Assembly (NCBI GenBank): GCA_032718475.1
Contig: JAUCBJ010009138.1
Location: 1 to 48,265 of the forward strand
Length of the DNA stretch: 48,265 nucleotides
Direction: 5' to 3'
DNA from: Nemertoderma westbladi
Lineage: Eukaryota; Animalia; Xenacoelomorpha
A model generated the notes under the pieces. The model saw only the letters and a list, made by a program, of their open reading frames with translations. It was not told where the DNA came from and did not search any database. Each line of letters opens with the position of its first letter. Positions within the stretch are counted from its first letter, which is position 1. Of the stretch, positions 1,554 through 42,203 are shown one piece after another. The position numbers and the translations under genes are program-made.

Positions 1554-3623
1554 GGAACTACGCGAATGATACATATACGAGGACCCGCTGGTTCTACCCA
1601 CGTATTCACTCGAGCGTGTTCCGACGTGATTGATTATTCTTTTGAAACTCTTACGGAGATACAAAAGAAACTTTGACATGGACAATTCGAGCTCGCGCAG
1701 CGTTACGTCACCGACACCGAGCGCAAACCGGCCATGGGTATCGATGGATCAATGTTACCCCAACCTGTACTCGCAATGTTGTTTAACGAAAGAATTCTAA
1801 AAATCGGCTCAGCTGTTTATGGAGATCTCCAAAACGACTTCCGGAATATGGAGAACATTCCATACCCTTTCGTTGATACTCAGCTGATTGCTCCTTGGGC
1901 CGAAGGCCGAGGTTTCTTTCGCACCATGTATGCCAATACCCCCAGCGGCATTACTAAAGTACAACGGACATCCATCGGACATCTGGCCTTTCAAGAATAT
2001 GGTTGGAATTTCAAAGTTGGAAATCCTATAAATTACCAGCAAGTATATGGGGATCATTACTCTCGTTTATATTTTGATGGACCATTAACTGCGCCTGGTG
2101 CCGTATATAGCTTTATGAGTGTTCCCCTTCGTCCTTCCTTAGCTATATACACGATCTTTGAAAACGCAGCACTTGCCGGTTGGCTAGCCGATGTGTGCAG
2201 TCGTACCATACGCGCTCACCCGTTAATACTTGGAACTAAACTCGCCAAGTTAGACGAACACAATAAGTTCATACGTTTCGAATGTTTCCGGCGCTTTCTG
2301 ACTCCGTTCCGTAACGTCGATAGTCAGTTCAAGGATCGCGCGCTGACCAAGCTCAGTCTTAGAGACTCAGCTGCAGAGAAACTGAGTAGCGCTGGATTTG
2401 CCGTCTTTCAAGACGTTTGTATACAGAACCTACATTCATCCGTTATACAAAGACCCCGAATATCTACAGGTTATTCTGTCGTGGAAATACAGACAGTGGG
2501 TCCACTTACGGAAACCGACGCACCCACTTCGTCTATGCAGCTGGAGGATGAACCAGTATGCTTGGAATCAGAAGCGATTCAACCTACGGCTTCCCGGAGC
2601 AGTGACAATGATTATGTCATAGAGTGGTATCAAGGTCCACAGCGTCTCACAGCGTACGATTATCGACACGCCAACTACGTTTCCCGAAAACGTTGTCGAT
2701 TATGCGCATCGAGAGACCACTTCACTCCTCTAGACTCGAGCGTACCTTGTTCCTATTTCCTCGAACAACCGATGATGGAAATATATTGTGCTTATTGCCG
2801 GCTTAATAACTCTCATATATTTGCCGTCTGCCCACAATTTATGACTCAATGTCACTACTGCCAACTTAAAGGACACGAAAGTTACAATTGTCCCTTTAAT
2901 CGCGATTTAGAGAGCGTAGACGAGATGATCACCCTGCGATACATCCGAGCTTGGGAAGCGAACGCAGATTTACATTGCGAATCCAGACATCGCTATTACC
3001 CTGGACGAGCTTACGAGGGAGTTTACGCGTTCCATCCTTACCTATTCGCGTCGATTGAACAGAAAACACGCGTACCAAGTTACGAGTTAATAAAGCGTGT
3101 TGGTGAGTGTATTTCCACCAAGTTTGTCAGGAAATACCTTAGAAACGTTAACCCTAATGATATAACCACATATCACCTGATCAATTTTATCCGTCAGGAC
3201 CCTGAGTATGGCGACATTTTCGTGAACTCGCATCCTGAACTCCAGGAAGTATCTCGGCGCCCATATGAATATCGAACCCGAGAACGCGAGCTGGAGAGAA
3301 CCATTAAACCGAGAAAGTTCCTCACCACTCACGGTCCACCCACCGCTAGTGTCCAGACGACCCGTCAAGGACCCGTAGGAGCTGCTGTCCTGAGACGCGC
3401 TCTAAAGGCCGTTAGATCTCGCTCCACTGAGGTTGATATTAATCAACCAGGTACTTCGACCGGCGGGTATACCGATCGTAACCCTGCACCTTCTGATGCA
3501 ATTATATTGCACCCTTCGCCTAGGAGCTACAGCCCTCCTCGTAAAGTGGCTCGCCCCAAAGAGAAAAGGACTCTTGCTAGCCTCAAGAAACTGCGTAAAC
3601 GCCGTCCGCGCAAGAAAGACTAA
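1554..3623 (+). pseudogene. Element A accessory ORF: DEDDy 3'-5' exonuclease-like domain plus CCHC zinc knuckles and a basic C-terminus (N-terminus lost, in-frame TGA at 1674-1676)
   Basis: ORF 1734-3623 is in frame with 1554-1673. Motifs: LPQPVLAMLFNERILKIGSAVYGD (ExoII region), FVDTQ, SIGHLA, PLRPSLAIYTIFE (ExoIII region), CRLC..H..C, CAYC..SH..CP, CHYCQLKGHESYNC. The tail KKLRKRRPRKK is NLS-like. Clearly homologous to 15610-17661. Confidence 0.75.
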
Positions 3624-6440: not shown

Positions 6441-7603
6441 CATTCATGTGCATGGCTGGATTTATGAATAGGACAACTAGGTCATGGCCTCGGGACCTCC
6501 CTCCAGGAGGGGGCCCCCCTGCTTCATTACATTTGCACTTCCATTAAAAGCCCATTAAGGAATATGACCTGACCAGTAGTGCCCCTCGTGATTCAGTAGT
6601 AGGCAGATTTGCCTGCTAGCATATTATTAAATGACAACATTCCAGGTTTGTGGTTTCCCAAAATTTCGATAACCTATTCCACTGGTGATTGTTGAATTTT
6701 CTTCATTGTTTTGTTGGCTAGGTTCAGAAACTAAACAAAAATGCTTAATGGAACTGGATAGATTGCATGATTAAAATGATATGTTAGGTCGACCCTGATT
6801 AGCAGAAAAGTTGAACTGGCCGTAGAGAACCCGAAGACTACTCCTTTCTTTATCCATCAATGCGCGATTCTTATCAGCAATATCTTTCATATCAATTGGT
6901 TGCATTTTATGAGTATAGTTGTGTAGAACGATCCCAATCTGATTTGTAGATTCTTGAGCTATTTTGTTGCTGACATAGTTGAACTGTATACTTTCCTCAG
7001 TGCGAACTGAAGCTTTATAGTTTTTATTTCTTGTAGATTCAAATATTTTGTACCACATTATAGTATCTCATTGACATGAGTTGTCGTAATGCCCTGTATT
7101 TCCTTATTGACGATGAGATAGGAAACTGCTGTATCAAATGATTGCATTCACACAAAACTTCCTTGAAAATGAAGTACTATTGTCGTCACCTTCATTCAGT
7201 CCATAGATACATTCTGAAAAGCTGTAGCTTAATATGTATTATCCTCCCTCGTCGGTTTCAGAAATATTTCATGGTTTGGGCATGATCCTAAAGATATGCG
7301 CAGTGTTCGCGGTATTTCAACTTTTCATAACGCGAGTTGAATATTTTTTGTATTTATTTAAAATGATTATTCCGATATCACTACTGGGTGCGGGACCATG
7401 GGTTTTGGGCACACTCAATGAACTGGGGCGATTTATGGCCGAATATTGGGGCGACTTACAGGGTACGGGATTCATTTCATGTATATAAGGGCCAGGGGGG
7501 GAAGGAAAAGTTAAGCAGTATTCAGGTTTACCTGATTACTATTAGGTCTAGCCAACTTCCTGCTGCCTGTAGAGGTGGATTTGGTAACTCGCTAGGTCTA
7601 AAG

Positions 7604-8420
7604 GACAAGGACTGCCCTTAGCGGTCCCTGGCCAACAGCAGTTATTATGAGCCTGAAAAGGACATCGGAAAGGCTGCTGCTTGTGTCAGGGATTTGCGAC
7701 GGGAAACGACGACAGACCCCGTAGCCAAGCCGTACTGGTTCTCGATTATCGTTCCCTTCGGGGTTCGTGAGGGGTGGGACGGACACGCGAAAGGGTCGAC
7801 CAACTAACAAGAGGAAGGGTTTGACGAGGACTGCCCTTAGCGGTCTCTGGTCAACAGCAGTTATTACGAGCCTGAAAAGGACATCGGAAAGTCTGCTGCT
7901 TGTGCCAGGGATTTGCGACGGGAACCGACGACAGACCCCTTAGCCTAGCCGTACTGGTTCTCGATGATCGTTCCCTTCGGGGTTCGTGAGGGGTGGGACG
8001 GACACGCGACGGGGTCGAAAGACAAAGGACTGGACTCTACTGGCCTACCGACTGTTCGGAGCAGTTTCTCGGCTGCCGAAGCGACTACGAGCCTGAATAA
8101 GGACTCGGAAAGCCTAGGTGGTTGGGTCCTGCGATGAACCGACGGACCCCTAGCCAAGCCGTACTGGTTCTCGATGATCGTTCCCTTCGGGGTTCGTGAG
8201 GGGTGGGACGGACACGTGAACGGGTCCACCGACACGACAGACTCCTAGCCAAGCCATACTGGTTCTCGATGACCGATCCCTTCGGGGTTCGTGAGGGGTG
8301 GTACGGATACGCGACAGAGTCTACTGACTGGACCGACCCTTAGCCAAGCCATACTGGTTCTCGATGATCGATCCCTTCGGGGTTCGGGAGGGGTGGTACG
8401 GACACGCAACAGGGTCGACC
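7604..8420 (+). repeat. Tandem GC-rich repeats within the LTR (two ~219-bp units plus shorter units, five hairpin cores)
   Basis: Core CCGTACTGGTTCTCGATGATCGTTCCCTTCGGGGTTCGTGAGGGGTGGGACGG at ~7730, 7949, 8159, 8254 and 8349. Confidence 0.9.
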
Positions 8421-8567
8421 GACACCGACACTACGGCACCAAGACTAGGACCGAGGGAAAATCTGGGGAACATTAGTTAGGCTAAAATCTGAGAGAACAG
8501 TGGGTAATTAAATAATTTACTGTAGGGATTTATATTGTCGTGTATTATTATTGTGAATAATTTGGTG

Positions 8568-8602
8568 TATATTGGTTTGGGGAAGCCCAATTTATTCTCA
8601 AT
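8568..8602 (+). promoter_or_regulatory. Candidate LTR core promoter (TATA-like plus Inr-like)
   Basis: TATATT at 8568-8573 lies about 26 bp before TTATTC (TYAKTY Inr-like, A at 8594). This coincides with the segment complementary to the PBS position. Confidence 0.45.
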
Positions 8603-8800
8603 CAAGGTTCAACTGTAGGGAAGTTACATTAAAGAGTATATCCAACCAATGCAGCTTTTTCTCAACCGCAATCTTGCATTTAAGAACGGGTTCCTTATCC
8701 ACAATCAATATCCGGTGACTGGCCGGGATTCCGTGGTCTGTAAAGTTCCGCCTCCAGCATCGGCGTTTTCCCCCATGGTGTCGGGAATAACGGCAACAAA

Positions 8801-8812
8801 ATTGAGAATAAA
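8801..8812 (+). promoter_or_regulatory. Primer-binding-site position: non-tRNA, complementary to LTR 8591-8602
   Basis: ATTGAGAATAAA lies 2 nt after the LTR end, has no TGG, and is the exact reverse complement of TTTATTCTCAAT. Confidence 0.7.
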
Positions 8813-9005
8813 ACGCGGCCAACTTCAACTGGTGGAAGTTGGGAATCCTGCAATACTCTTCAAACTCTCTCCGTGCTTACCCAGCACCCACTACGAGGAA
8901 ACTCTGGTATTTGAGTTAAGACAAAGCCGTGGTTTAATCAATCGACAAACTCGATCAAATAAACTCGTAGTCGGCAGATCACATATAGAGAGTCGTTAAC
9001 AGGGA

Positions 9006-9197
9006 ATGGAAGTATCGATCACACCCATTGACATAATTCAAGTTGAGCCAGGAATCTGGCACGTCGAGGTTGAAGTACAAGGAACGAACGTCGGACGATT
9101 CAGGATTACCGTTCGAGTAGTCCAAGCCGAGTACGAGAGCTACGAAGAACTATTCTATGACATCGCATATCTCGCTATCAACGAGGCGCTAGAATGA
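9006..9197 (+). CDS. 63-aa small upstream ORF overlapping the gag start (ATGA)
   Basis: Good start context (GGAATGG). Alternating hydrophobic beta-strand pattern followed by an acidic amphipathic helix. Its TGA overlaps the gag ATG at 9194. Confidence 0.4.
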   Translation: MEVSITPIDIIQVEPGIWHVEVEVQGTNVGRFRITVRVVQAEYESYEELFYDIAYLAINEALE

Positions 9198-12100
9198 CAA
9201 CGAACAACGTCTCCGACACCGATGAGATGGACACCCGCACAGACTCGGAAGCCGACGAGGTACCGAATATCAAGAACATGACCCGTCGACTAGGTGCTCT
9301 CAAAGGCGGAGTCACTCGAGCGTATCAGCGTATAGAGAAACAACTCAAGAGAGTCGAAACTCCCCTCAACGAGATACAAACTCAGCTTCAGAATATCCGA
9401 AGTATCTTACAACGATATGAGAGGATGATACAGGCGTATCAAGAACTCGTTCCCTCCACCGATCAGGTAAACTACCCCAGGTTAGAAGAACATGTTGTAC
9501 ATCTAGATGAGTTCCGCAAACAACACCGGAGGACCCTCAGCCTTGTGAGAGGCTACGAAGAACAGTACTACAAGAGAGCTGAAAGAACAGACGCAGAATC
9601 GGTGCGAACCTCCAGCACCAGGACAGCAATACATCGAAAGAGAACGGGGTCCTCTAGGAACCAGCACTCCAGCGCTAGGAGCGCGGTGTCCGGTTCAGCA
9701 CACAGCTCTCAAGGGGGTCAGCCACTCCGGTCAGAACAGAAGGCATTAGCCCTCAAAGCTCGGATGGAAGATGAGTATGTTCAACTGCGAACCGAGCAAG
9801 ATGTATTAGCCGCCGAAATGCAAAACGAGAGGCCGAACAAGCGGCCGAACGGCAGGTTGAACAACGCGAACAGGAGGCTGAACAACATAGACAAGAGGCC
9901 GAACGGCAGGCCGAACAGCATAGACGAGAGGCCGAACAACGTGAACAGGAAGCTGAACAACGTGGACGAGAGGCCAAACAAGAGATCGAACAATGTAAAT
10001 GGGAAGCAGAAATGCGTAAACAACACGCCGAGGCCCAAGCGATTCTCATCCACAAAAAGAATGCGGATATTGCGAAACTCGCGGAATACGAAGCCGCGCT
10101 TTTAGAACGAGATATTCAAATATACGAGGACTGGGAAAGGGGTATAGACCAGAACTATGAACCAATACCGATACCAGAATTAGAGAAGTCCTTAACGACA
10201 CCGGCGGTGAAACCTCCGAAACCCGAGTTCCCGCCTACCATACAGTCTACGTTATTGGCACAAGCACCGGTATTCCATCCCCCACCGGTTACGCTTAAGA
10301 ATGAGGAACCTTATATCCCAGCCAACCCCACGGTCCCGAGCGTTCCCAAGTACGAGCCTGAAAAGGACTCGGAACGGGTCGCTACTCCTCGATCCAACAA
10401 CCCGTTTACATCCACACCACAAATCCGTAGCCGCGTCATCATTAAAACTCCACCTATCATCGATCCATCGTGCATGGGAGAGAGTGCCAATAACTATAAC
10501 CCTCCTAGTCATTCCGGTTCAGACGACGTTGGCATTATCCAGGCATTAGAGAACCGACTGGCCATGCCCAAGATGGAGATCCGCACCTTCGAAGGAGATC
10601 CCGTCGATTACCTCAGATTCAAGAAACGGTTTTTCGCGCAGATTGGATCAACGGACATAGCCGACGCACAAAAGCTAGTATATTTATCCCAATACCTGGG
10701 CGACAAACCACGCCGGATTATTGCATGCTTCGAGGGAGGAGCTCATGAGGCATACTATGACGCATGGAAAACTCTAGATAAAAGATACGGAAATATCGGG
10801 ACTATAATTAATAAAACTCTCGAGAAACTGATACAGGACGCGGGATCCCTAGGGGACCCACAGAATATCCAAGAATTCTCAGATTCGATGAAGGATGCCT
10901 ACTACACTCTAAAACCATTAAATAAGGAGGAACAAGTAAACAACATTCTAAACCTCCGACAGATCGCCCGGAAGTTCCCCGGATGGCTACAAAGTAAGTG
11001 GGCGTATAAATGCGTAGATCTCCGGCGCAGACACCCAGATCGATGATCCCAGTTTCCTCGAAATGTCGGCATTCCTGGACGATATCTCCGAAGCCATGAA
11101 TGACTCGATGTTCTCGAAACAGAGTCTCGCCAAGTTAGACGGAATAGAGAGCAACTCCAGGAGTAAGACGCCCACTCAGAAACCGAGATTCCGTCCCCCT
11201 CCGGTGAGTACGATGGCCATCACCATGGCCGAGGATTCCGATGACGAAGACTACGAGGAACCGACATCAGCCGAGGAATGGGCGTGTTACCTTGCGAATT
11301 GGGCACCCGAAAGGGGAGGCATCACAAACTCCCTTCTCTGTCTCTTCTGCGGAGAGAAACATAAAGTGGAATTCTGCAGGAAGTTCCAGTTTGCCGAACT
11401 CGTCCCACGCTTCGAGGCAATAATGAAACACCGAGGATGCTTCCGGTGTCTTGGAACAGGTCACTATGTTCGGGATTGCGACCAAAGATCATGCTGTGCG
11501 GTCTGTAATGACCTACGTCATCACACACTCCTCCACATCCCCACGAACTTTGACTTCACCACCCTCCCCTTTCGGATTGAAGCCAAACGAAGAGGAGAAA
11601 CGAACCACGTTTCTAAAGGAACCCGGACGACCCAACGGAGAGAAACCAACCCGTTTAAAACCTCCACCGATGCATCACAAGTAACAAATATCTCAGCCAC
11701 GATCAACCTTATAAATCGCCGTTACATGGTCTTCGCCAAAGTAATCCCAGTAAGAATTCAAGGGGTCGGGAAATCCTTGACAACGCTCGCGTTCCTTGAT
11801 AACGGGTCGGACGGAACCATCATCGACCGGGATTTCCTCGAGCAAATCGGCCTAGACTATGAACCTTGCAAACGGCCCATACAAACTATCACCGACCATA
11901 GAGAAGTAGAATCCGGGGAGGTGCAGCTCCAGATGGAAGGAGTAATGAAGGGCTACGAGACGGTTAAGCTGACAATCAAGAATGCCTTGGTACACACCGA
12001 TCTCCGAGTGCGGTTCCGACAATCAGCCGAATACGCCCCTCTCATACAGTTAGACCGGGAAGATGTAGACCTAAGGTGCCTGCCGTTGGACGTAAACCGC

Positions 12101-12511
12101 ATCACCCTATTGATCGGACTTGACACACCGGAATTACACATACCCACCGGAGACGTCGCCCGATCTATAAAGCAGGATGACGGCTTTTACGCTGAACGAA
12201 CAATAATGGGATGGACACTCTGCGGCATCAAGGAAGAGACTACAGACACCTATACATACCTTCCTAAATGTCAGATTAAAGAGAATGCAACCTCCGTGGG
12301 TTATTGTTCGGTGACCGACCTCCACTCACCATCACGGCGACACACCACGTTTGTAGCGAACCGAGCCACGGAGATAAAACAGTGCACCGGCCGAGAACAG
12401 TGGCACCATGTAAATGGGAAAGAAAACCCAGCTGACTTATCGAGCAGAGGCGCCACCCCACGACAGCTCGGTAAAAGTAAACTCTGGCTTACAGGCCCGA
12501 AATTCCTATAG
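9194..12511 (+). pseudogene. gag-pol: Element B gag-protease fused to an RNase H C-terminal remnant; frameshifts at ~9822 and ~11042; RT deleted at ~12320
   Basis: Coiled-coil Gag and DUF1759-like FEGDPVDYLRF...KLVYLSQYL. Knuckles CLFCGEKH..C, CFRCLGTGH..C and CAVCNDLRHHTLLH. Protease AFLDNGSDGT and RTIMGWTLCG, followed directly by FVANR...WHHVNGKENPADLSSRG. Confidence 0.92.
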
Positions 12512-14245
12512 CAGCCACAATTAACATGGAGTACCCGATTCGATCCCGAACTCGATAGCGGAAAATACTCCGAGGACGACAAAAAAGGCCGTAAAGTCCA
12601 TAGAAGCAGCGCAGTGGAAATCTATAGTTGTCTGACCGAGCCTGCAAAGGACTCGGGTAGGCACTATAACGTCGCGACAATCACTCAACCAGCGGCGTCT
12701 TTACATCTGTTGATCGAGCGAACTTCATCAATGAGACGGCTCATCCACCACATTATAACCCTTCGCTACTTCCTACGGTGGAAAGACAACAAGCCGATAG
12801 TTCAACGGAGTATACAAGAACTCATTATCGCGGAGAAGTGTATTGTTGGATATGTCCAGAGAGAAAGTTTCCCCGATGAGTGAGAACAACTCAGTGCGGG
12901 CAAGACCTTGAAACCGGACAACCCAGTCTACCAACTGAGACCAATGATGGGAGAGGACGGACTGATTCGACTGAATACCCGGATGGCAAACGCCCCGGTT
13001 GAATATGAGGTTAAATACCCAGCGCTTCTGCCCGGAATGTCGACACTAGCCAAGCTATTAATCCAACAGTGCCACGAGGAAAACCATCACGCAGGACAGA
13101 ACTGGATTATAGCTAATATACGACAAAGGTATTGGATCACCCACATCCAGCCACTGATCCGGAATGTGTTAAAACGTTGCTTTCCCTGCAGAAGATATCT
13201 AGCGCCACCACTCACACAAAAGATGGCCGACTTACCAGCCACCCATCTACAGTCCGATTCCCCACCGTTCTATGTAACCGGAGTAGACTGTTTCGGACCG
13301 TTTACAATCATCGAGCGACGATCCAACATCAAATGCTGGGGAGCCATCTTTACCTGCCTTAGGTCTAGGGCAATCTACCTAGACATCGTGGTGAACCTTA
13401 CGCAACACGCATTCATCAACGCCCTGCGTCGGTTTGTGGCGAACAATGGGACATGTCTTCATATGTACTCCGATAAAGGTACAAACTTTGTGGGAGGAGA
13501 AAGAGAACTTAGAGAGGCGATCGAGGGATGGTTTACCAAGGACACCGCATCCCAAGTCTGGAGGGACCACCATATACAGTGGCACTTCCAAACACCCTTA
13601 GCACCCCATACGAGCGGGGTATGGGAGAAGCTAATCGACTTAGTAAAACGATCTATGCGCGTCGCATTAGGAGACACCCGCGTAACCCATGACACCCTCC
13701 GCACAACATTCTGCGAGATCGCGGCTACCCTGAACAACCGGCCCATTGTCCCTATCCGCGACGACCCCACAGACCTGGAGCCTCTCACTCCTAACCACCT
13801 ACTGGGAAGACCCAAAACCCATATTCTCCCAGAGATGATGTTTCCGGATCCCAACGATATCGCGAGACATACAAATTGGAAGAAGGCCCAAGCGTTGGCG
13901 GCGCATTGGTGGAGAATCTGGGCCCAGGAGTACCTCATAACCCTCCGGACCAGGAGGAAGTGGAACAACACCTATAGGAATGTCGCGGTTGGCGACATGG
14001 CGCTAGTGAAAGAAGATCTCAAAGACCGCGTCCACTGGCCTGTGGCGCGAGTCGTGACAATACACCCGAGCAAAGACGGACTTGCGAGGACTGTGACGAT
14101 ACGAATGGCAAAGGGCCACTACCAACGCCATATCCAGAGGCTGTGCCTTCTTGAAGGCAATGACAGTGGTGACTCTACGAGAGGTGATATGTTCCCTACT
14201 CAGGATCCTGCTGCAGACATTGGTGACAATGCTAAACCCGTGTAA
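12512..14245 (+). pseudogene. pol: Element B integrase region (same frame, read through stops at 12509-12511 and 12881-12883)
   Basis: HHCC finger (HEENHH...CFPC), DDE core (GVDCFGP, SDKGTNFVG, GVWEKL), PLTPNHLL, and the BEL C-terminal domain (WAQEYL...WPVARV). Confidence 0.93.
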
Positions 14246-14518
14246 ACCCTTCTCATACTGTTGACAAACTCTTTTAAAATGTGATTTATCGACAATGAAA
14301 ATGGACACCCTTAAACCAACTGTAACCACGCAATGGTATTTGTGTTTCCTCGTGTGTTATGTGGAGTCCAGCGTCACCCTGCAGATGTTTCGACTGATGC
14401 AGTGTCGTTTATGTATTGTTAACCCTGATTTTGGTCAACAGGACCAACGACATTGGATTATTGGAAATGGTAAAGATTTGAAGTGGAATTCATTGTATTC
14501 ATTGTAGTATGTTATGTT

Positions 14519-14945
14519 GTCCGTTGCGTGCGCAGTTCGGGGCGTAGGCGGTGTAACTAGTCCAGCTGTAGATCCCGGATTGCCGCGCAACACCCCCTCT
14601 ATCCCGTTATTCTGGTGGGTCCATGGTGCATCCACATGACTTCGACGATAGAGGTTTTAAGTTTCTCAGTCGCGCTATTCTGGTGGGACCGTTCCGTGGA
14701 TTTTGGGGCGTAGGCGGTGTAACTAGTCCAGCTGTAGATCCCAGAATGTTGCGTAACCCCATCCCACATGACTTCGTCGGCTGAGCTTTATGTTGCTGGG
14801 AGTGTTATTCTGGTGGGTCCCTGGTGCATTCCACGTGACTTCACTTCCAGCGTCTTCATTGTCCGTTACGTGTGCAGTTTGGGGCGTAGGCGGTGTAACT
14901 AGCCCAGCTGTAGATCCCAGATTGCCGCGTAACACCCCTTCCACA
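14519..14945 (+). repeat. Three imperfect direct repeats between integrase and the accessory ORF
   Basis: GGGGCGTAGGCGGTGTAACTAG(T/C)CCAGCTGTAGATCCC at ~14539, 14705 and 14881. TATTCTGGTGGG also occurs three times. Confidence 0.85.
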
Positions 14946-15485
14946 ACGAAAATTTCCCAAAGAAGATGATTGAATGTAGTTGGAAATGATGAAAAGAAAC
15001 AGACGACATTATTATAAACTGAATGGTGACGCGTATGCTGATGAAAATGTAATGATGCGCACCCTGGTGCTGCGCTTATAACAAATGATGATAGCCGGGG
15101 GGCTATAACCCCAATGATGATGTGGAAATAAATGAAATGTGAAATGGTGGAAATAAATGATGAAATGTGTTGAAATAAATGAAATGTGAAATGAAATAAT
15201 AATGAGAAATGAAAAAAGACAAAAAAAAGGTATAAAAATGTAAAAAGAAAAGAATTGGAAAAAAGAAGAGGACATAAAAAGTCAAAACTGGTTGGATATT
15301 AATGTATAGCTATAGTAACTGTAAATGCTGAATGTATTAGCAATAAGATGGTAGATGCCTATATAGCAATGTTGTTTAATAAACTGAATTAAAAATAAAC
15401 TGAATTATTCTGCAATCACTATAGTATCAGACTTTCTAGACTTATAATTAACTGATATAAATTTGCAACGGACATAATTGTAAAT

Positions 15486-17686
15486 ATGGACCCAAATCGC
15501 CAAATTATCGGCGAATTACGTAATACGATAGATCTACTGCCTCAACCTGGATCCACAACCTGGAGCCCCTAACTTTGATACAAATTGGAGCACCCTGATA
15601 AATGAGAATGTGCGAGTCGTCAAATTCTCCGGGCGAGAGGGACCGGATTCCCGGAATCTACGAGCCCTCCGGTTGGCCGATGCTAGTACGAGACTGAAAA
15701 GAACTCGGAATGCAAAGGCTACCGGAGGGGATGAGTTGTCGTACTGGGATACGTTCTGGCAAAGCGTCTACAAATCCCAATGTTTGATATACGACAACGA
15801 GGGAAACGCAACGCCCACCTCGAAAGCGATGACGTTGGCGCGATGTCAAAGTTTCGTCGACGACAAGAGTACGTACTGGGGAAACCTAGCGGAGTGTACG
15901 GCGACGCTACGAGAGGAACGTATATCGGTTATCCAGAATCGCGACGACTACCAGGAGAAGTACGAGACGAAAGAATACGGTCGATCCTTGGTCGTCGTCT
16001 TCGGTACCCTGGACGGTTTGGTGTTGGTGTGTCGAATATTTCCGACACCCAGACAGGAGGTACGGACAGCCGGAGCGATCTGGCTACTACCGCCGGAGAT
16101 CCAAAAGATCCTCTTCGACTTCGACGTTATTAAAATCGGGTCGGATATAAAAGCGGACGTCCGTAACGACTACGCGAACGCTCCTTTCGGAAGAGACCGT
16201 AAAGAAGATCTCAATGCCATTAGTCACTGCATCGACACCCAGACACTACTAGCCTGGTTACGATCCGCCGAATTCATGCGAGGATTCCGCGAGGTGAGAC
16301 AGACGAAATCCGGGATCGGCTACCTCGCTGTGCTAAACGGCGGCATCGACTTTAAACCTCAGAAATTCCAGGACTATAATAAGATATATGGTGGATACCC
16401 GGGATTAGAAATAAGGAGCGAGCGAGAGAGTCGATGGAAGGACGTTGACAGGAGGTGGACGATACACCAAAGGTGGGAGAATCCCAATCGACGGAACTAC
16501 ATCTACGTTGTTATGGAGCCCTACACCGTCGCTAAGTTTATATGTAAAACTCTCGATAACCTCATTACGGCGGTTCCTCTTTCCTTTGTCGACTACGACT
16601 GGAACGAGGTTATAAACAACGCGTTCAAAGCGGTCGAGAATATTACACTGGGAGAGACAAAAACGTTCACCGTTATCGATTCCTGGGACGAGAACGGACC
16701 TTACAACATCCCTACGATTACCGATCTTCTCGGTGCGGAGGAGCCTCTGATTTCTTCGGAAGGGGAAGAACTATGGCTACATGAGGGCGTTCTACTGTCT
16801 ACCCCAAAGCGACCACTCGAGCCGGAAGCTGCGTATGAACCGGCCGCCAAATGGGTTGCCTCGGCCGAACCTGCGACGGAAGCAGGTGCTTCCACCCCAC
16901 TCGGCTCCGGTAGCCCTGCGAGGGAGTTAGTCACCACCTCCGCGTTGAGCGACTTTGGCGACATATGCCAGAGGTTATCCCCATATCCTTTCCCGGGTGG
17001 CGAAGACTGGTCGTCGGAGATTCCGAGTACCAGCAATCAACAGACCCGCTCAGCGATACTGGTCGAGAAGGGTCCTAGCGCTACGCCGACTCCCGAAGAT
17101 CTCCTTGGAATTCCTCCGTCGAAAACCCCGGCACCTCTGCGCCGACCAGCAGTGACAACTACCCCCTCCGTTCCACAGGATCCTATGCGATTAACCCGAT
17201 GGTACGCCGAGCAGACCGAATGGATCCACCGCCAGAAACGGTCGTCCGAGATGAGACTGGCAGGACATAAAGAAGGTTATCGGAGCGAGAACCTACTACG
17301 CCAAAGCCCAGCCTTCCGCGGGCTACCGGCCACCGCGAATATTCAAAAGAGCGACCGACGACTCGAGTATTACGTCGGCGTCTCAATTCCGATATTCCCC
17401 GGTCGAGAGATGCAGTTGGAGATATGCGCAAACTGCGGTTCGGAGCAGTGCCCACGTGGTAGACGAAATCGGGTTACCGATTCGTGCCTACAGCTCCTCG
17501 GGATCCTGTATTGCCCATACTGCGCGACATCGGGACATGATGTCTCGGTTTGTCCAATCCTTTATAACCTCTGCACAACTTGCGGTTTCCGTGGACATTC
17601 CACTAGCCCCCGCTGCTATATAAAATGTCCTACAAAAGACGTTACCACTATGGGAAATTAGGTCATGTTCGAAACATACGCAAACG
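15486..17686 (+). pseudogene. Element B accessory ORF: DEDDy 3'-5' exonuclease-like domain, Pro-rich linker, zinc knuckles
   Basis: Main frame 15610-17661. Probable true ATG at 15486 with a 1-nt frameshift at ~15549. ExoI IYDNEG, ExoII VIKIGSDIKAD, CIDTQ, GIGYLA, ExoIII W...YVVME, then CPYCATSGHDVSVCP and CTTCGFRGH. Truncated by the deletion into the 3' LTR. Confidence 0.78.
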
Positions 17687-18190
17687 GGGGTGGTACGGAT
17701 ACGCGACAGAGTCTACCGACTGGACCGACCCTTAGCCAAGCCGTACTGGTTCTCGATGATCGATCCCTTCGGGGTTCGGGAGGGGTGGTACGGACACGCA
17801 GCAGGGTCGACCAACACCGACACTACGGCACCAAGACTAGGACCGAGGGAAAATCTGGGGAACATTAGTTAGGCTAAAATCTGAGAGAACAGTGGGTAAT
17901 TAAATAATTTACTGTAGGGATTTATATTGTCGTGTATTATTATTGTGAATAATTTGGTGTATATTGGTTTGGGGAAGCCCAATTTATTCTCAATCAAGGT
18001 TCAACTGTAGGGAAGTTACATTAAAGAGTATATCCAACCAATGCAGCCTTTTCTCAACCGCAATCTTGCATTTAAGAACGGGTTCCTTCTCCACAATCAA
18101 TATCCGGTGACTGGCCGGGATTCCGTGGTCTGTAAAGTTCCGCCTCCAGCATCGGCGTTTTCCCCCATGGTGTCGGGAATAACGGCAACA
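17687..18190 (+). repeat. 3' LTR of element B (5'-truncated, 504 bp)
   Basis: Collinear with 8295-8798, about 6 substitutions by eye. Confidence 0.95.
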
Positions 18191-18995
18191 CGCAGAGATG
18201 GGATTTGATTTAAGGTGGTAAAAAGTATTTTTTCAATATTTTCTGGAAACCTTCCCATTACATTTAAAATTCGATGTAAAACAAATATGTATTCGAGCTG
18301 TACAAGTGGAACCTCAAATATTACATATTTCTTAAAGTAATGGCTCATGGGAGCATTTTTGAAAAAGAAAAAGTTTTTTTTCCTAAAATGGCCACACTTA
18401 CTTGAAATTTGCACTATTTGAGGTTCCACTTGTGTAGCTCAAAATTCAGTATACGGGTCGAAAATTTCATGACAATTGGATTTACAGATCTCGAGAAAAA
18501 GGAACGTGAATAAAATTAGGTCCGCAATATCGCGGAAGGAGTAAATGGAGCTGAAAGTCAAAATATATAGAATGTGCCATATTAATACATATACATATGA
18601 GTTTTGAAAGATTATGATTCATGTGATGTTAGTTGGATTTTCGGAATGAACATAAAATTCTGCTCTAGTGGGGAAATCTGGGAATAAAATTTCAAAATAA
18701 ATGAATTTCAAAAAATGATCTTATACGAATTACAAATGTCAATGCTGCATATATGCTGCATATATGCTGCATATAACAAAGACCAATCCGCCAAGGTAAT
18801 ATTTCATGAGCATAATTCAAACAAGAAAAGGGAATAACTGGAACATGTACTGGAAGTAGAACATGCCTCTTTAAAAAATGAGCCAAATTTTGAAAAATTG
18901 GCAAACCTCCGCTTTGATAAATTTCACCGAAAAATAATGCTTATAACTTTTGCATGCTTGGCATAAACCGTAAACATATATTATATTTGTTATAG

Positions 18996-19267: not shown

Positions 19268-22200
19268 TATGAACAATACTGTCTGATATCCTGGAGTAAA
19301 ATAGTCCTATGTACAGTAAAAATCGCATAGACATAAACAAAAAAGGTCTTATGTACAATACTGCCTGATATCCTGGAGTAAAATAGTCCTATGTACAGTA
19401 AAAATCGCATAGACATAAACAAAAAAGGTCTTATGTACAATACTGCCTGATATCCTGGAGTAAAATAGTCCTATGTACAGTAAAAATCGCATAGACATAA
19501 ACAAAAAAGGTCTTTTTTACAATACTGCCTGATATCCTGGAGTAAAATAGTCCTATGTACAGTAAAAATCGCATAGACATAAACAAAAAAGGTCTTATGT
19601 ACAATACTGCCTGATATCCTGGAGTAAAATAGTCCTATGTACAGTAAAAATCGCATAGACATAAACAAAAAAGGTCTTATGTACAATACTGCCTGATATC
19701 CTGGAGTAAAATAGTCCTTATGTACAGTAAAAATCGCATAGACATAAACAAAAAAGGTCTTATGAACAATACTGCCTGATATCCTGGAGTAAAATAGTCC
19801 TATGTACAGAAAAAATCGCATAGACATAAACAAAAAAGGTCTTATGAACAATACTGCCTGATATCCTGGAGTAAAATAATCCTATGTACAGTAAAAATCG
19901 CATAGACATAAACAAAAAAGGTCTTATGTACAATACTGCCTGATATCCTGGAGTAAAATAGTCCTTATGTACAGTAAAAATCGCATAGACATAAACAAAA
20001 AAGGTCTTATGAACAATACTGCCTGATATCCTGGAGTAAAATAGTCCTATGTACAGTAAAAATCGCATAGACATAAACAAAAAAGGTCTTATGAACAATA
20101 CTGCCTGATATCCTGGAGTAAAATAGTCCTATGTACAGTAAAAATCGCATAGACATAAACAAAAAAGGTCTTATGAACAATACTGCCTGATATCCTGGAG
20201 TAAAATAGTCCTATGTACAGTAAAAATCGCATAGACATAAACAAAAAAGGTCTTATGTACAATACTGCCTGATATCCTGGAGTAAAATAGTCCTTATGTA
20301 CAGTAAAAATCGCATAGACATAAACAAAAAAGGTCTTATGTACAATACTGCCTGATATCCTGGAGTAAAATAGTCCTTATGTACAGTAAAAATCGCATAG
20401 ACATAAACAAAAAAGGTCTTATGAACAATACTGCCTGATATCCTGGAGTAAAATAGTCCTATGTACAGTAAAAATCGCATAGACATAAACAAAAAAGGTC
20501 TTATGAACAATACTGCCTGATATCCTGGAGTAAAATAGTCCTATGTACAGTAAAAATCGCATAGACATAAACAAAAAAGGTCTTATGTACAATACTGCCT
20601 GATATCCTGGAGTAAAATAGTCCTTATGTACAGTAAAAATCGCATAGACATAAACAAAAAAGGTCTTATGTACAATACTGCCTGATATCCTGGAGTAAAA
20701 TAGTCCTTATGTACAGTAAAAATCGCATAGACATAAACAAAAAAGGTCTTATGTACAATACTGCCTGATATCCTGGAGTAAAATAGTCCTTATGTACAGT
20801 AAAAATCGCATAGACATAAACAAAAAAGGTCTTATGTACAATACTGCCTGATATCCTGGAGTAAAATAGTCCTTATGTACAGTAAAAATCGCATAGACAT
20901 AAACAAAAAAGGTCTTATGAACAATACTGCCTGATATCCTGGAGTAAAATAGTCCTATGTACAGTAAAAATCGCATAGACATAAACAAAAAAGGTCTTAT
21001 GAACAATACTGCCTGATATCCTGGAGTAAAATAGTCCTATGTACAGTAAAAATCGCATAGACATAAACAAAAAAGGTCTTATGAACAATACTGCCTGATA
21101 TCCTGGAGTAAAATAGTCCTATGTACAGTAAAAATCGCATAGACATAAACAAAAAAGGTCTTATGTACAATACTGCCTGATATCCTGGAGTAAAATAGTC
21201 CTTATGTACAGTAAAAATCGCATAGACATAAACAAAAAAGGTCTTATGTACAATACTGCCTGATATCCTGGAGTAAAATAGTCCTATGTACAGTAAAAAT
21301 CGCATAGACATAAACAAAAAAGGTCTTATGAACAATACTGCCTGATATCCTGGAGTAAAATAGTCCTATGTACAGTAAAAATCGCATAGACATAAACAAA
21401 AAAGGTCTTATGTACAATACTGCCTGATATCCTGGAGTAAAATAATCCTATGTACAGTAAAAATCGCATAGACATAAACAAAAAAGGTCTTATGAACAAT
21501 ACTGCCTGATATCCTGGAGTAAAATAGTCCTATGTACAGAAAAAATCGCATAGACATAAACAAAAAAGGTCTTATTTACAATACTGCCTGATATCCTGGA
21601 GTAAAATAGTCCTATGTACAGAAAAAATCGCATAGACATAAACAAAAAAGGTCTTATGTACAATACTGCCTGATATCCTGGAGTAAAATAGTCCTTATGT
21701 ACAGTAAAAATCGCATAGACATAAACAAAAAAGGTCTTATGTACAATACTGCCTGATATCCTGGAGTAAAATAATCCTATGTACAGTAAAAATCGCATAG
21801 ACATAAACAAAAAAGGTCTTATGAACAATACTGCCTGATATCCTGGAGTAAAATAGTCCTATGTACAGAAAAAATCGCATAGACATAAACAAAAAAGGTC
21901 TTATTTACAATACTGCCTGATATCCTGGAGTAAAATAGTCCTATGTACAGAAAAAATCGCATAGACATAAACAAAAAAGGTCTTATGTACAATACTGCCT
22001 GATATCCTGCTGGAGTAAAATAGTCCTATGTACAGTAAAAATCGCATAGACATAAACAAAAAAGGTCTTATGTACAATACTGCCTGATATCCTGGAGTAA
22101 AATAGTCCTATGTACAGAAAAAATCGCATAGACATAAACAAAAAAGGTCTTATGTACAATACTGCCTGATATCCTGGAGTAAAATAGTCCTATGTACAGT

Positions 22201-22915
22201 AAAAATCGCATAGACATAAACAAAAAAGGTCTTATGAACAATACTGCCTGATATCCTGGAGTAAAATAGTCCTATGTACAGTAAAAATCGCATAGACATA
22301 AACAAAAAAGGTCTTATGTACAATACTGCCTGATATCCTGGAGTAAAATAGTCCTATGTACAGTAAAAATCGCATAGACATAAACAAAAAAGGTCTTATG
22401 AACAATACTGCCTGATATCCTGGAGTAAAATAGTCCTATGTACAGAAAAAATCGCATAGACATAAACAAAAAAGGTCTTATTTACAATACTGCCTGATAT
22501 CCTGGAGTAAAATAGTCCTATGTACAGAAAAAATCGCATAGACATAAACAAAAAAGGTCTTATGTACAATACTGCCTGATATCCTGGAGTAAAATAGTCC
22601 TTATGTACAGTAAAAATCGCATAGACATAAACAAAAAAGGTCTTATGTACAATACTGCCTGATATCCTGGAGTAAAATAATCCTATGTACAGTAAAAATC
22701 GCATAGACATAAACAAAAAAGGTCTTATGAACAATACTGCCTGATATCCTGCTGGAGTAAAATAGTCCTATGTACAGTAAAAATCGCATAGACATAAACA
22801 AAAAAGGTCTTATGTACAATACTGCCTGATATCCTGCTGGAGTAAAATAGTCCTATGTACAGTAAAAATCGCATAGACATAAACAAAAAAGGTCTTATTT
22901 ACAATACTGCCTGAT
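19268..22915. repeat. 82/83-bp intronic satellite, about 44 copies
   Basis: Unit TATGTACAATACTGCCTGATATCCTGGAGTAAAATAGTCCTATGTACAGTAAAAATCGCATAGACATAAACAAAAAAGGTCT, near-identical copies. Confidence 0.97.
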
Positions 22916-26160: not shown

Positions 26161-26269
26161 TGGCGCATCCTTTACTTCCACAATGATCGGACCACTCACA
26201 ACAGGACAATATCTCTCAACTGATATAACCCCATTGAATAATCTAATATCCTCAGTGAAACTTGTATAA
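26161..26269 (+). CDS. Beta/gamma-crystallin-family gene, last coding exon (Greek key 4)
   Basis: ttcctttcag|, in frame: NGASFTSTMIGPLTTGQYLSTDITPLNNLISSVKLV*. Confidence 0.85.
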
Positions 26270-29200
26270 GATACTCGTATAAACTTGTATAAGATACTTG
26301 TATAAACTTGTATAAGATACTTGTATAAACTTGTATAAGATACTTGTATAAACTTGTATAAGATACTTGTATAAACTTGTATAAGATACTTGTATAAACT
26401 TGTATAAGATACTTGTATAAACTTGTATAAGATACTTGTATAAACTTGTATAAGATACTTGTATAAACTTGTATAAGATACTTGTATAAACTTGTATAAG
26501 ATACTTGTATAAACTTGTATAAGATACTTGTATAAACTTGTATAAGATACTTGTATAAACTTGTATAAGATACTTGTATAAACTTGTATAAGATACTTGT
26601 ATAAACTTGTATAAGATACTTGTATAAACTTGTATAAGATACTTGTATAAACTTGTATAAGATACTTGTATAAACTTGTATAAGATACTTGTATAAACTT
26701 GTATAAGATACTTGTATAAACTTGTATAAGATACTTGTATAAACTTGTATAAGATACTTGTATAAACTTGTATAAGATACTTGTATAAACTTGTATAAGA
26801 TACTTGTATAAACTTGTATAAGATACTTGTATAAACTTGTATAAGATACTTGTATAAACTTGTATAAGATACTTGTATAAACTTGTATAAGATACTTGTA
26901 TAAACTTGTATAAGATACTTGTATAAACTTGTATAAGATACTTGTATAAACTTGTATAAGATACTTGTATAAACTTGTATAAGATACTTGTATAAACTTG
27001 TATAAGATACTCTGTATAAACTTGTATAAGATACTTGTATAAACTTGTATAAGATACTTGTATAAACTTGTATAAGATACTTGTATAAACTTGTATAAGA
27101 TACTTGTATAAACTTGTATAAGATACTTGTATAAACTTGTATAAGATACTTGTATAAACTTGTATAAGATACTTGTATAAACTTGTATAAGATACTTGTA
27201 TAAACTTGTATAAGATACTTGTATAAACTTGTATAAGATACTTGTATAAACTTGTATAAGATACTTGTATAAACTTGTATAAGATACTTGTATAAACTTG
27301 TATAAGATACTTGTATAAACTTGTATAAGATACTTGTATAAACTTGTATAAGATACTCTGTATAAGATACTTGTATAAGATACTTGTATAAACTTGTATA
27401 AGATACTTGTATAAACTTGTATAAGATACTTGTATAAACTTGTATAAGATACTTGTATAAACTTGTATAAGATACTTGTATAAACTTGTATAAGATACTT
27501 GTATAAACTTGTATAAGATACTTGTATAAACTTGTATAAGATACTTGTATAAACTTGTATAAGATACTTGTATAAACTTGTATAAGATACTTGTATAAAC
27601 TTGTATAAGATACTTGTATAAACTTGTATAAGATACTTGTATAAACTTGTATAAGATACTTGTATAAACTTGTATAAGATACTTGTATAAACTTGTATAA
27701 GATACTTGTATAAACTTGTATAAGATACTTGTATAAACTTGTATAAGATACTTGTATAAACTTGTATAAGATACTTGTATAAACTTGTATAAGATACTTG
27801 TATAAACTTGTATAAGATACTTGTATAAACTTGTATAAGATACTTGTATAAACTTGTATAAGATACTTGTATAAACTTGTATAAGATACTTGTATAAACT
27901 TGTATAAGATACTTGTATAAACTTGTATAAGATACTTGTATAAACTTGTATAAGATACTTGTATAAACTTGTATAAGATACTTGTATAAACTTGTATAAG
28001 ATACTTGTATAAACTTGTATAAGATACTTGTATAAACTTGTATAAGATACTTGTATAAACTTGTATAAGATACTTGTATAAACTTGTATAAGATACTTGT
28101 ATAAACTTGTATAAGATACTTGTATAAACTTGTATAAGATACTTGTATAAACTTGTATAAGATACTTGTATAAACTTGTATAAGATACTTGTATAAACTT
28201 GTATAAGATACTTGTATAAACTTGTATAAGATACTTGTATAAACTTGTATAAGATACTTGTATAGATACTTGTATAAGATACTTGTATAAACTTGTATAA
28301 GATACTTGTATAAACTTGTATAAGATACTTGTATAAACTTGTATAAGATACTTGTATAAACTTGTATAAGATACTTGTATAAACTTGTATAAGATACTTG
28401 TATAAACTTGTATAAGATACTTGTATAAACTTGTATAAGATACTTGTATAAACTTGTATAAGATACTTGTATAAACTTGTATAAGATACTTGTATAAACT
28501 TGTATAAGATACTTGTATAAACTTGTATAAGATACTTGTATAAACTTGTATAAGATACTTGTATAAACTTGTATAAGATACTTGTATAAACTTGTATAAG
28601 ATACTTGTATAAACTTGTATAAGATACTTGTATAAACTTGTATAAGATACTTGTATAAACTTGTATAAGATACTTGTATAAACTTGTATAAGATACTTGT
28701 ATAAACTTGTATAAGATACTTGTATAAACTTGTATAAGATACTTGTATAAACTTGTATAAGATACTTGTATAAACTTGTATAAGATACTTGTATAAACTT
28801 GTATAAGATACTTGTATAAACTTGTATAAGATACTTGTATAAACTTGTATAAGATACTTGTATAAACTTGTATAAGATACTNNNNNNNNNNNNNNNNNNN
28901 NNNNNNNNNNNNNNNNNNNNNNNNNNNNNNNNNNNNNNNNNNNNNNNNNNNNNNNNNNNNNNNNNNNNNNNNNNNNNNNNNGATACTTGTATAAACTTGT
29001 ATAAGATACTTGTATAAACTTGTATAAGATACTTGTATAAACTTGTATAAGATACTTGTATAAACTTGTATAAGATACTTGTATAAACTTGTATAAGATA
29101 CTTGTATAAACTTGTATAAGATACTTGTATAAACTTGTATAAGATACTTGTATAAACTTGTATAAGATACTTGTATAAACTTGTATAAGATACTTGTATA

Positions 29201-41100: not shown

Positions 41101-41170
41101 TTCATTATTCAATTTGTTCTTTATACCATCAACATTCCACCAAAGTATCCTAATAAGATGATCTATACAT
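38114..41170 (-). pseudogene. LINE ORF2 (APE endonuclease plus RT) with frameshifts at ~40745 and ~39062
   Basis: WNVDGI, IVFLSE, GDFN and SNH (APE). GPDGI, NYRGISL, FVDFKTAFD, GLRQG, LLMDDT and YVYLG (RT). C-terminal CACG...EEH...C. Confidence 0.9.
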
Positions 41171-41268
41171 GGCTGTCCTAGAAAAACTGTTTGGGCTCAC
41201 GGTATAAGACAGCGTCACCACGCTTAACTGAACGGGATCTCCAGTCAATCGAGATTACAAATCCTGCA

Positions 41269-42111: not shown

Positions 42112-42203
42112 TGTCTTTTCCGTAATACGGTATAATTATTAATTATTGCATATATTTCAGAATTTATCCGGTATTAACAAATACAAAAAAGGCGGACATA
42201 CCG

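Follow-up and report, generated by a model that had tools for sequence, protein, structure and literature searches.

Predicted GNRA-capped hairpins with a bulged-G-type loop, dispersed in a BEL/Pao retrotransposon of Nemertoderma westbladi: possible protein-docking tags on its RNA

CERV of the C. elegans element Cer1 is a precedent for an export factor encoded by a retroelement itself (PMC10309623, in its available part, where we found no description of an RNA element that CERV binds). HIV-1 Rev/RRE, the MPMV CTE and Cer1 CERV are the systems to which a structured cis element in retroelement RNA is most readily compared (same partial source). The RRE and the CTE are single regions, whereas the motif described here, motif A, is a small unit spread over R and three genes. 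Other LTR elements carry a third open reading frame of the DEDDy exonuclease type, whose role is left open in the available text of PMC5408684. Egalitarian has an exonuclease fold and binds bulged hairpins such as the K10 TLS (10.1101/2025.08.03.668247, in excerpt). Finally, AGUA and AUUA are known strands of bulged-G loops, and in the AUUA variant an arginine from a protein occupies the position of the G (PMC13085918, partial text).

Motif A lies in a BEL/Pao LTR retrotransposon, and we found no cis-acting RNA signal described for BEL/Pao elements in the literature searched. The repeated unit is larger than first described. It includes a bulged-G-type loop below the hairpin and outer helices, and predicted kink-turn repeats lie next to it; we regard these as its most telling features.

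The retrotransposon and its open reading frames

The window, by which we mean the whole stretch of DNA analysed, is positions 1-48,265 (forward strand) of the Nemertoderma westbladi contig JAUCBJ010009138.1 (GCA_032718475.1). On its plus strand lies a decayed element (7304..18190), recognized by Pfam domains, a TSD and an empty-site joint. It encodes a DUF1759 Gag (E value 1.1e-13) with zinc knuckles (zf-CCHC, 1.6e-3), a protease (Asp_protease_2, 1.2e-4) and an integrase (Integrase_H2C2, 2.3e-9) followed by DUF5641 (3e-27). This domain order, together with LTR ends TG...CA and the 5-bp TSD CGCAG (7299-7303 and 18191-18195), identifies a BEL/Pao element. Moreover, contigs from sequencing runs X1 and X2 (one sample) contain the empty-site joint, in which 7298 is followed by 18191. 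The closest integrase relatives are Pol proteins with DUF5641, nearly all of which also have PF05380 (36-43% identity).

Both gag and pol are interrupted by frameshifts and stops, RT and most of RNase H are missing (a Pfam scan found neither between protease and integrase in this copy), and the 3′ LTR is truncated. At about 12306-12320, contigs from the sequencing runs diverge from the window sequence, consistent with an internal deletion. The 5′ LTR (7304..8798) matches the 3′ LTR (17687..18190) at 99% over 8295-8594. It has TATATAA at 7482 and ATTAAA at 8507, the latter with GU-rich sequence behind it, and from these signals we infer R at about 7510-8530. The 3′ LTR is without its first ~990 nt, which accounts for its having no motif A copies; it keeps one of the B units described below (17723-17811).

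ORF3 (15532..17661, plus strand) has a putative DEDDy-like 3′-5′ exonuclease-type domain and C-terminal zinc knuckles, and is a candidate ligand of motif A. Its Atlas feature match to DNA_pol_A_exo1 clusters is 0.92, and it has three relatives at 30-32% identity. In the ORF3 alignment, Exo II- and III-like residues align, but Exo I lacks a clean DxE. There was no Pfam exonuclease match, the structure model (pLDDT 34.6) was too poor for use, and protein searches with ORF3 and Gag, restricted to near lengths, found nothing. P0003, which ranked first in the ORF3 search, was excluded from the alignment because this protein is repetitive and has no relationship to ORF3. Upstream of gag, a 63-aa ORF (9006..9197, plus strand) has a stop that overlaps the gag start (ATGA); its AlphaFold2 model, from one sequence, has a pLDDT of 88, and fold searches returned weak matches (Z up to 4.8), none at E 0.001. 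The window also contains another BEL fragment, which is rearranged and has a relative of ORF3 but no motif A; the gene parts that house motif A in the main element are missing from this fragment.

Six copies of a predicted hairpin and their structural context

Motif A occurs six times in the element, always on the plus strand: three times in the 5′ LTR and once each in gag, pol and ORF3. Each of the copies listed in the original prediction is present, and no others were found elsewhere in the 48-kb window. From the outside inwards, the module is predicted to consist of an outer helix, a bulged-G (sarcin-ricin-type) loop, a short stem from which an A bulges, and a GNRA cap. Copies 1 (7644-7670, fold z -4.3) and 2 (7863-7889, z -3.3) have an AUUA/GAA loop and one additional A in the 3′ arm; copy 1 also has a long outer helix. 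Copy 3 (8084-8110, z -1.39) combines an ACUA/GAA loop with a five-base apical loop. An AGUA/GAA loop is found both in copy 4, in the proline-rich linker of gag (10349-10374, z -1.45), and in copy 6, in the N-terminal region of ORF3 (15685-15710, z -3.4), where one apical C-G pair has become A and A (core energy -2.6 kcal/mol). Copy 5, in the RNase H-integrase linker of pol (core 12637-12656; 12623..12668 with the outer stem), has a GCAA loop and lacks the NNUA/GAA loop; its anticipated TATAG/CTATA stem extension does appear in the predicted fold (z -3.5).

Relative to the 24-nt gag copy, copies 1 to 6 lie at edit distances of 2, 1, 1, 0, 5 and 2. Such repetition greatly exceeds chance: when the element was resampled 60 times with an order-3 Markov model, there was no match within distance 5, and 0.33 per run at distance 6. 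Furthermore, a covariance model built from three copies recovers the other three at E values of 3.8e-8, 2.7e-5 and 2.4e-4, the next match in the 48-kb window being at 0.34.

Besides the additional A of copies 1 and 2 and the lost pair of copy 6, two details of the original prediction need correction. The copies were said to lie in different reading frames: the ORF3 copy (TRLKRTR) does differ, but the gag (YEPEKDSE) and pol (TEPAKDSG) copies share a codon phase. The GAATA loop reported for the third copy has its five bases in the window but is not the majority state in runs X1-X4, where a 1-nt deletion at 8098 makes up 62, 53, 79 and 100% of depth, although some contributing contigs may derive from other motif A copies. 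An abundant LTR variant in X3 (depth 3603) keeps the motif core and has a changed 3′ flank. No substitution falls inside a motif A copy among the 40 listed of 1598 substitution rows (12 of 142 indel rows were listed), an absence that carries no evidential weight.

Below the GNRA hairpin, five of the six copies have, by read-out of their sequence, a 7 × 6 internal loop with the sarcin-ricin (bulged-G) signature, in which an AGUA-type strand faces GAA between predicted closing pairs. GAA is the strand opposite AGUA in bulged-G loops. Here the long strand is AGUA or AUUA in four copies and ACUA in a fifth, the bulged position varying between G, U and C. A strict 7 × 6 descriptor, composed like our other structural descriptors after the copies had been seen, recovers four of the six; it has four matches on the plus strand of the element, none on the minus strand, none in the other 37 kb, and four in 543 kb of BEL loci (both strands read).

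Across the six copies, the 7-bp apical stem shows neither compensatory change nor covariation. Every copy has a predicted outer helix of its own that closes it and is formed from largely unrelated flanks (5-14 of 28 bases common in the five contexts tested). Pairing of each copy's own flanks ranks first of 120 permutations over the five contexts, with combined Fisher p values of 1.4e-5, 1.4e-4 and 1.6e-5 for flanks of 10, 14 and 20 nt. The three coding copies alone give p values of 2e-4 to 8e-4. The effect is weaker with 8-nt flanks (p 0.017; coding copies 0.05). Among three copies, two outer-helix pairs are changed on both sides; in the controls a +1 slide also gave two, and 24 of 500 shuffles scored at least as high as the real alignment.

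In pol, the copy corresponds to a 20-codon insertion, its 20 residues falling in columns that are less than 20% occupied among 104 BEL proteins. The RNase H-integrase linker is 96 aa long here versus 63-82 in 82 homologues, and the motif-encoded peptides occur in none of 124 other proteins compared.

In the 5′ LTR, motif A is interleaved with five 89-nt B units (7712..8419, plus strand) in the order A-B-A-B-A-B-B-B. The B-unit alignment predicts a hairpin with a UUCG cap over a kink-turn signature (a 3-nt bulge, then tandem G-A/A-G pairs between two helices), a signature present in five of six B units. Of 120 cells in this alignment 93% are paired, and none of 20 pairs is compensatory. The kink-turn descriptor matches at 7960, 8170, 8265 and 8360, against a background of one other match in 48 kb (both strands) and 18 of 2000 resampled units.

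Rfam gave no match at gathering score in the whole window, ribozymes included, and between 6500 and 19200 its sole match overlapping a motif copy was a weak lncRNA (E 0.22). Hammerhead and twister readings were judged by eye and dropped, and Rfam agrees. The comparison set comprised 80 distant BEL loci (543 kb; integrase identity 35-41% for nearly all; many contigs without LTRs). Motif A is absent from these loci (best model match E 0.77), an approximate search gave three weak matches, all without structure, and ORF3 relatives were not found. None of the 58 distant BEL loci of at least 6 kb has a dispersed three-copy 20-mer, by a test that detects the motif A element. The exact or degenerate motif pattern had no match in the viral contigs, metagenome contigs and prokaryote genomes scanned, and the viral contigs yielded no integrase relatives.

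The bulged-G signature, the separate closing helices, the pol insertion and the kink-turn array point to a predicted RNA structure kept by selection, rather than to chance duplication. The proposal of a cis-acting RNA element is well supported, by copies in the sense strand only, by their own closing helices and by the linker insertion in pol; packaging, export and localisation are candidate roles, and the Gag or ORF3 knuckles candidate ligands.

Possible functions of the motif

We favour, with a probability of roughly 0.4, a reading in which motif A is a repeated docking tag that a protein, either ORF3 or a host adaptor, would recognize for RNA export or transport. The RNA would fold as predicted, selection would keep the fold, and the copies would single out RNA of the element for export from the nucleus and for transport. 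A protein would read the motif through both its bases and its shape, to judge from an apical stem that hardly changes in sequence and an outer helix that does. This reader would be ORF3, with its putative exonuclease fold and its zinc knuckles, acting in a Rev- or CERV-like manner, or else a host adaptor, and several sites would load several protein copies on one RNA. Given the inferred R, an intact RNA would have three motif copies at each end and at least three internally. The evidence singles out none of ORF3, Gag or a host protein as the reader. Against the docking-tag reading stand the defects of individual copies (the C-G loss in ORF3, the extra A in copies 1 and 2, the pol copy without a bulged-G loop), the weak fold z-scores of the gag copy and LTR copy 3, the apical stem without compensatory change, the weaker outer-helix signal with 8-nt flanks, the slide and shuffle controls, and the lack of motif A in the second BEL fragment. 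For the 961-nt leader, predicted folding was likewise no stronger than in shuffled sequence (z -0.34).

We think it unlikely that the whole forms a self-marking system, in which at least nine bulged-G/GNRA hairpins would be read by the element's own repurposed exonuclease-knuckle protein and kink-turn arrays in R would recruit a host L7Ae-family protein. If true, a Rev/RRE-like RNP code made of ribosome-type three-dimensional modules would be written into coding sequence.

The covariance model, outer helices and 7 × 6 loop would equally suit dispersed packaging signals, our second choice, with Gag zinc knuckles binding each hairpin and assembling the particle cooperatively along genomic RNA. 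Gag has a CCHC knuckle by Pfam, retroviral NC binds G-containing tetraloops, and ssRNA viruses have multiple packaging hairpins. We nevertheless find packaging doubtful: motif A is missing from all 80 BEL loci, whose Gag-Pol is of the same kind, and copies in R and ORF3 would be common to genomic RNA and any subgenomic ORF3 RNA (splicing being putative) and could not set them apart. Because any ORF3 mRNA would have these copies, export seems to us the better reading.

Protein-free RNA architecture appears improbable. GNRA and bulged-G RNA-RNA contacts would compact or dimerize the genome or organize the leader, with kink-turns as hinges. A leader role, namely control of translation or polyadenylation, would suit the distance of about 1.7 kb, with several upstream ORFs, between the inferred RNA start and the gag ATG. 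However, such control leaves the copies deep in gag, pol and ORF3 unexplained, and a near-invariant stem sequence better suits base-specific reading.

A DNA-level site for a transcription factor or chromatin factor, recurring both within the LTR and in the interior of the element, would account for sequence that is conserved rather than covarying, and tandem LTR repeats are often enhancers. We consider it very unlikely, because unrelated flanks pair around each copy, all copies share a single orientation, duplex energy favours the plus strand in five of six, and the TATA box lies upstream of the LTR copies. Least probable of all is a neutral origin, in which template switching at a stable hairpin would have produced micro-duplications that flexible linkers tolerate. 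It would fit the near-identical cores, the apical stem without covariation, the tolerant sites and the several defective copies in a decayed element, but leaves five different closing helices, the in-frame fit in pol and the abundant X3 variant unexplained.

A 26-nt unit repeated within an ORF3-bearing element is a small, concrete substrate with which the binding preferences of such an ORF3 could be tested. The element also provides a clear natural example of RNA modules placed in frame in protein linkers, and such modules offer a route to finding hidden RNA signals in other transposon families.

Comparison with known RNA modules and retroelements

In rRNA helix 95, a GNRA tetraloop sits one pair above a bulged-G loop. 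About 7 bp and a bulge separate cap from loop in motif A, and a direct mimic of the helix 95 SRL was rejected on this ground. Phage boxB is a GNRA-like pentaloop on a short stem. The suggested likeness of motif A to boxB is not supported, since five of the six loops have four bases and the sole five-base loop is not the majority form in the sequencing contigs. By its sequence, the predicted loop resembles the sarcin-ricin 7 × 6 class in its 7 + 6 nt loop sizes, flanking pairs and AGUA/AUUA strand (PMC13085918, partial text). Like the box C/D- and U4-type kink-turns bound by 15.5K/Snu13 (PMC5579392), five of six B units have a 3-nt bulge ending in U and tandem GA pairs; unlike them, these predicted kink-turns form a tandem array in an LTR, without a guide region or second box.

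If ORF3 is the reader, motif A would resemble the Egalitarian hairpins, which are bulged stem-loops read by an exonuclease fold and of which several are thought to cooperate. However, Egalitarian is a host protein without demonstrated sequence likeness to ORF3, and the excerpt describes no bulged-G loop (10.1101/2025.08.03.668247). Bdelloid Juno and Vesta are LTR elements with a third ORF of DEDDy exonuclease type, to which the putative domain of ORF3 would correspond; the available text of PMC5408684 names Juno, Vesta and Athena, with no BEL/Pao element and no repeated RNA motif among what it names. With HIV-1 Rev/RRE, the MPMV CTE and Cer1 CERV, the present element would share a structured cis element in retroelement RNA. 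ORF3 has a putative exonuclease-type domain rather than the domains of CERV; as with CERV, however, the element has an extra cysteine-rich protein as a possible reader (PMC10309623, available part).

Six copies of a hairpin unit within one retrotransposon

The original prediction of a GNRA-capped hairpin repeated six times holds for the number of copies. We found all six, on the + strand throughout and none outside the BEL/Pao element: three in the LTR (LTR1, 7644-7670; LTR2, 7863-7889; LTR3, 8084-8110) and one each in gag (10349-10374), pol (12623-12668, including its outer stem) and ORF3 (15685-15710). Five copies of this unit, hereafter motif A, lie at an edit distance of 0-2 from the 24-nt gag copy and the pol copy at 5, and no match at distance 5 or less arose in 60 Markov resamplings. 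Moreover, a model trained on three copies retrieves the other three at E values of 3.8e-8 to 2.4e-4; the next match has E 0.34. The five-base loop at 8098 in LTR3 is not the majority form by contig depth, and an abundant LTR variant in sequencing run X3 keeps the motif A core with a different 3' flank.

Motif A seems to be family-specific. It is absent from 80 distant BEL loci searched, and from a second BEL fragment in the window; this fragment includes a relative of ORF3 but not the gene parts in which motif A would be expected. A test that detects motif A in the element found a dispersed three-copy repeat in 0 of 58 distant BEL loci of at least 6 kb.

The gag copy lies in a proline-rich linker; in ORF3 the unit precedes the exonuclease domain. 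The RNase H-integrase linker has 96 residues here, compared with 63-82 in 82 measurable homologues. In an alignment with 104 homologues, the 20 codons encoding the hairpin and outer stem account for the long stretch of sparsely filled linker columns; the pol copy is therefore the RNA unit inserted in frame. The copies had been said to occur in different reading frames, which is correct for ORF3, but gag and pol share one codon phase.

Predicted RNA structure

The unit extends beyond the hairpin first described: in five copies a loop of 7 + 6 nt with flanking pairs lies beneath it. GAA is the opposite strand of the 7x6 sarcin-ricin loop. The strand facing GAA reads AGUA in gag and ORF3, AUUA in LTR1 and LTR2, and ACUA in LTR3; the pol copy lacks the loop in standard orientation. 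AGUA is the typical strand, and in RT-10 RNA, which has the AUUA form, a protein arginine stands in for the G (PMC13085918). A strict 7x6 descriptor, composed after the copies had been seen, gives four matches on the element's + strand. It gives none on the element's - strand, none in the remaining 37 kb of the window, and four across both strands of 543 kb from other BEL loci.

Every copy is closed by its own predicted outer helix. The 14-nt flanks of five contexts have 5-14 of 28 bases in common, and pairing left flanks with their own right flanks ranks first of 120 permutations. This outer-helix test omits LTR1, a near-duplicate of LTR2, and yields combined p values against shuffled flanks of 0.017 (8 nt), 1.4e-5 (10), 1.4e-4 (14) and 1.6e-5 (20). 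The LTR2 and LTR3 contexts probably come from an old shared duplication and hence are not fully independent; the three coding copies by themselves give 0.05, 1.8e-4, 7.9e-4 and 7.2e-4 at the same lengths. An alignment of three copies shows two-sided changes at two outer pairs, a result equalled by 24 of 500 shuffles and by a +1 slide. Several observations count against a selected structure: the apical stem shows no covariation among copies, the ORF3 copy has lost one pair, two LTR copies carry an extra A, two copies are only weakly better folded than shuffles, and the whole leader folds no better than shuffles. We consider it likely that selection maintains the unit as some form of RNA structure.

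Within the 5' LTR, copies of motif A are interspersed with those of an 89-nt repeat, the B unit (7712-8419), in the order A-B-A-B-A-B-B-B; a further B unit occupies 17723-17811. TATATAA at 7482 and ATTAAA at 8507 place these repeats in the inferred R, so intact RNA would have them at both ends. The B unit is 93% paired in its proposed structure, with zero compensatory changes among 20 pairs counted; judged by eye, the basal helix of unit 4 has one compensatory C-G to U-A change. Beneath a UUCG hairpin it carries a kink-turn signature, with a UA/GA loop at the base. The signature is standard in five of six units, where the third base of the bulge is U; its descriptor finds one further match in the window and 18 in 2000 resampled units. 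Kink-turns of this type are bound in snoRNAs by the 15.5K protein (PMC5579392).

Host element and surrounding sequence

The BEL/Pao LTR retrotransposon (7304-18190, +) has TG...CA ends, a CGCAG target duplication and Pfam domains (DUF1759, CCHC knuckle, aspartic protease, integrase zinc domain, DUF5641). Its empty site, 7298 joined to 18191, occurs in contigs of runs X1 and X2, which are one sample. The element is decayed: frameshifts and stops break up gag and pol, reverse transcriptase and most of RNase H are absent, and about 990 nt are missing from the start of the 3' LTR. Contig depths sum to tens of thousands in X1-X3, which suggests a large family, although depth is not copy number.

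A 63-aa acidic ORF (9006-9197, +) precedes gag, and the overlap of its stop with the gag ATG suggests that the two are translated in a coupled way. Its confident model has three strands and a helix, with weak resemblance to uS5 and dsRBD folds. The minus strand at 11501-11600 folds much better than mononucleotide shuffles (z -6.7), for which composition may account. Between pol and ORF3, three ~83-nt repeats (14517-14941, +) have a predicted common stem with two-sided changes in 3 of 25 pairs. E-box-like hexamers lie nearby, followed by an A-rich stretch that contains TATAAAA (at 15231) as well as several AATAAA; this region may act as an internal ORF3 promoter.

ORF3 (15532-17661, +) has language-model features like those of 3'-5' exonuclease clusters (score 0.92); a Pfam search of it gave no exonuclease match. 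Of its three relatives, which share 30-32% identity with it, one also carries the C-terminal knuckles. DEDDy ORF3s have been described in LTR elements of rotifers (PMC5408684). The second, rearranged BEL fragment comprises gag-protease (2-1633, -) and, diverging from it, a truncated exonuclease-knuckle ORF (1677-3623, +) related to ORF3 (28% over 113 aa). The genome has at least two BEL families with an ORF3-type gene.

A long inverted repeat directly past the 3' LTR (18300-18435) is probably a DNA transposon end; its miRNA-family matches are weak, far under the gathering score. Between them, 19268-22915 and 26258-34501 hold 44 copies of an 82-bp satellite and about 350 of a near-perfect 23-bp satellite, which has no stop codon in any of the three minus-strand frames. 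ORFs at 38114-42135 (-), with a reverse transcriptase domain (RVT_1, E 1.2e-20), an upstream coiled-coil ORF and GA-rich repeats on the flanks, likely form a LINE-type element.

Candidate function and known systems

We propose, with a probability of roughly 40%, that motif A is a tag for RNA export or transport. A near-invariant cap atop variable helices has the look of a protein-binding site, and the copies in R and ORF3 would ride on every sense transcript, an arrangement that would suit a general tag better than a signal selecting genomic RNA. For the same reason dispersed Gag packaging signals, a weaker candidate, fit the R and ORF3 copies less well. RNA architecture or translation control is improbable, a DNA site considerably more so, and neutral duplication comes last.

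An export or transport tag has precedents: export of Cer1 RNA needs CERV (PMC10309623), and in Egalitarian an exonuclease domain helps to bind a bulged localization hairpin (10.1101/2025.08.03.668247). No Rfam family matches motif A, and the full-text literature searched, which includes few subscription papers, describes no such signal for a BEL/Pao element. Motif A is a real feature whose building blocks and general role are already known; the literature searched does not describe an LTR element in which such units are dispersed and placed in frame, together with kink-turn arrays and a bulged-G loop.
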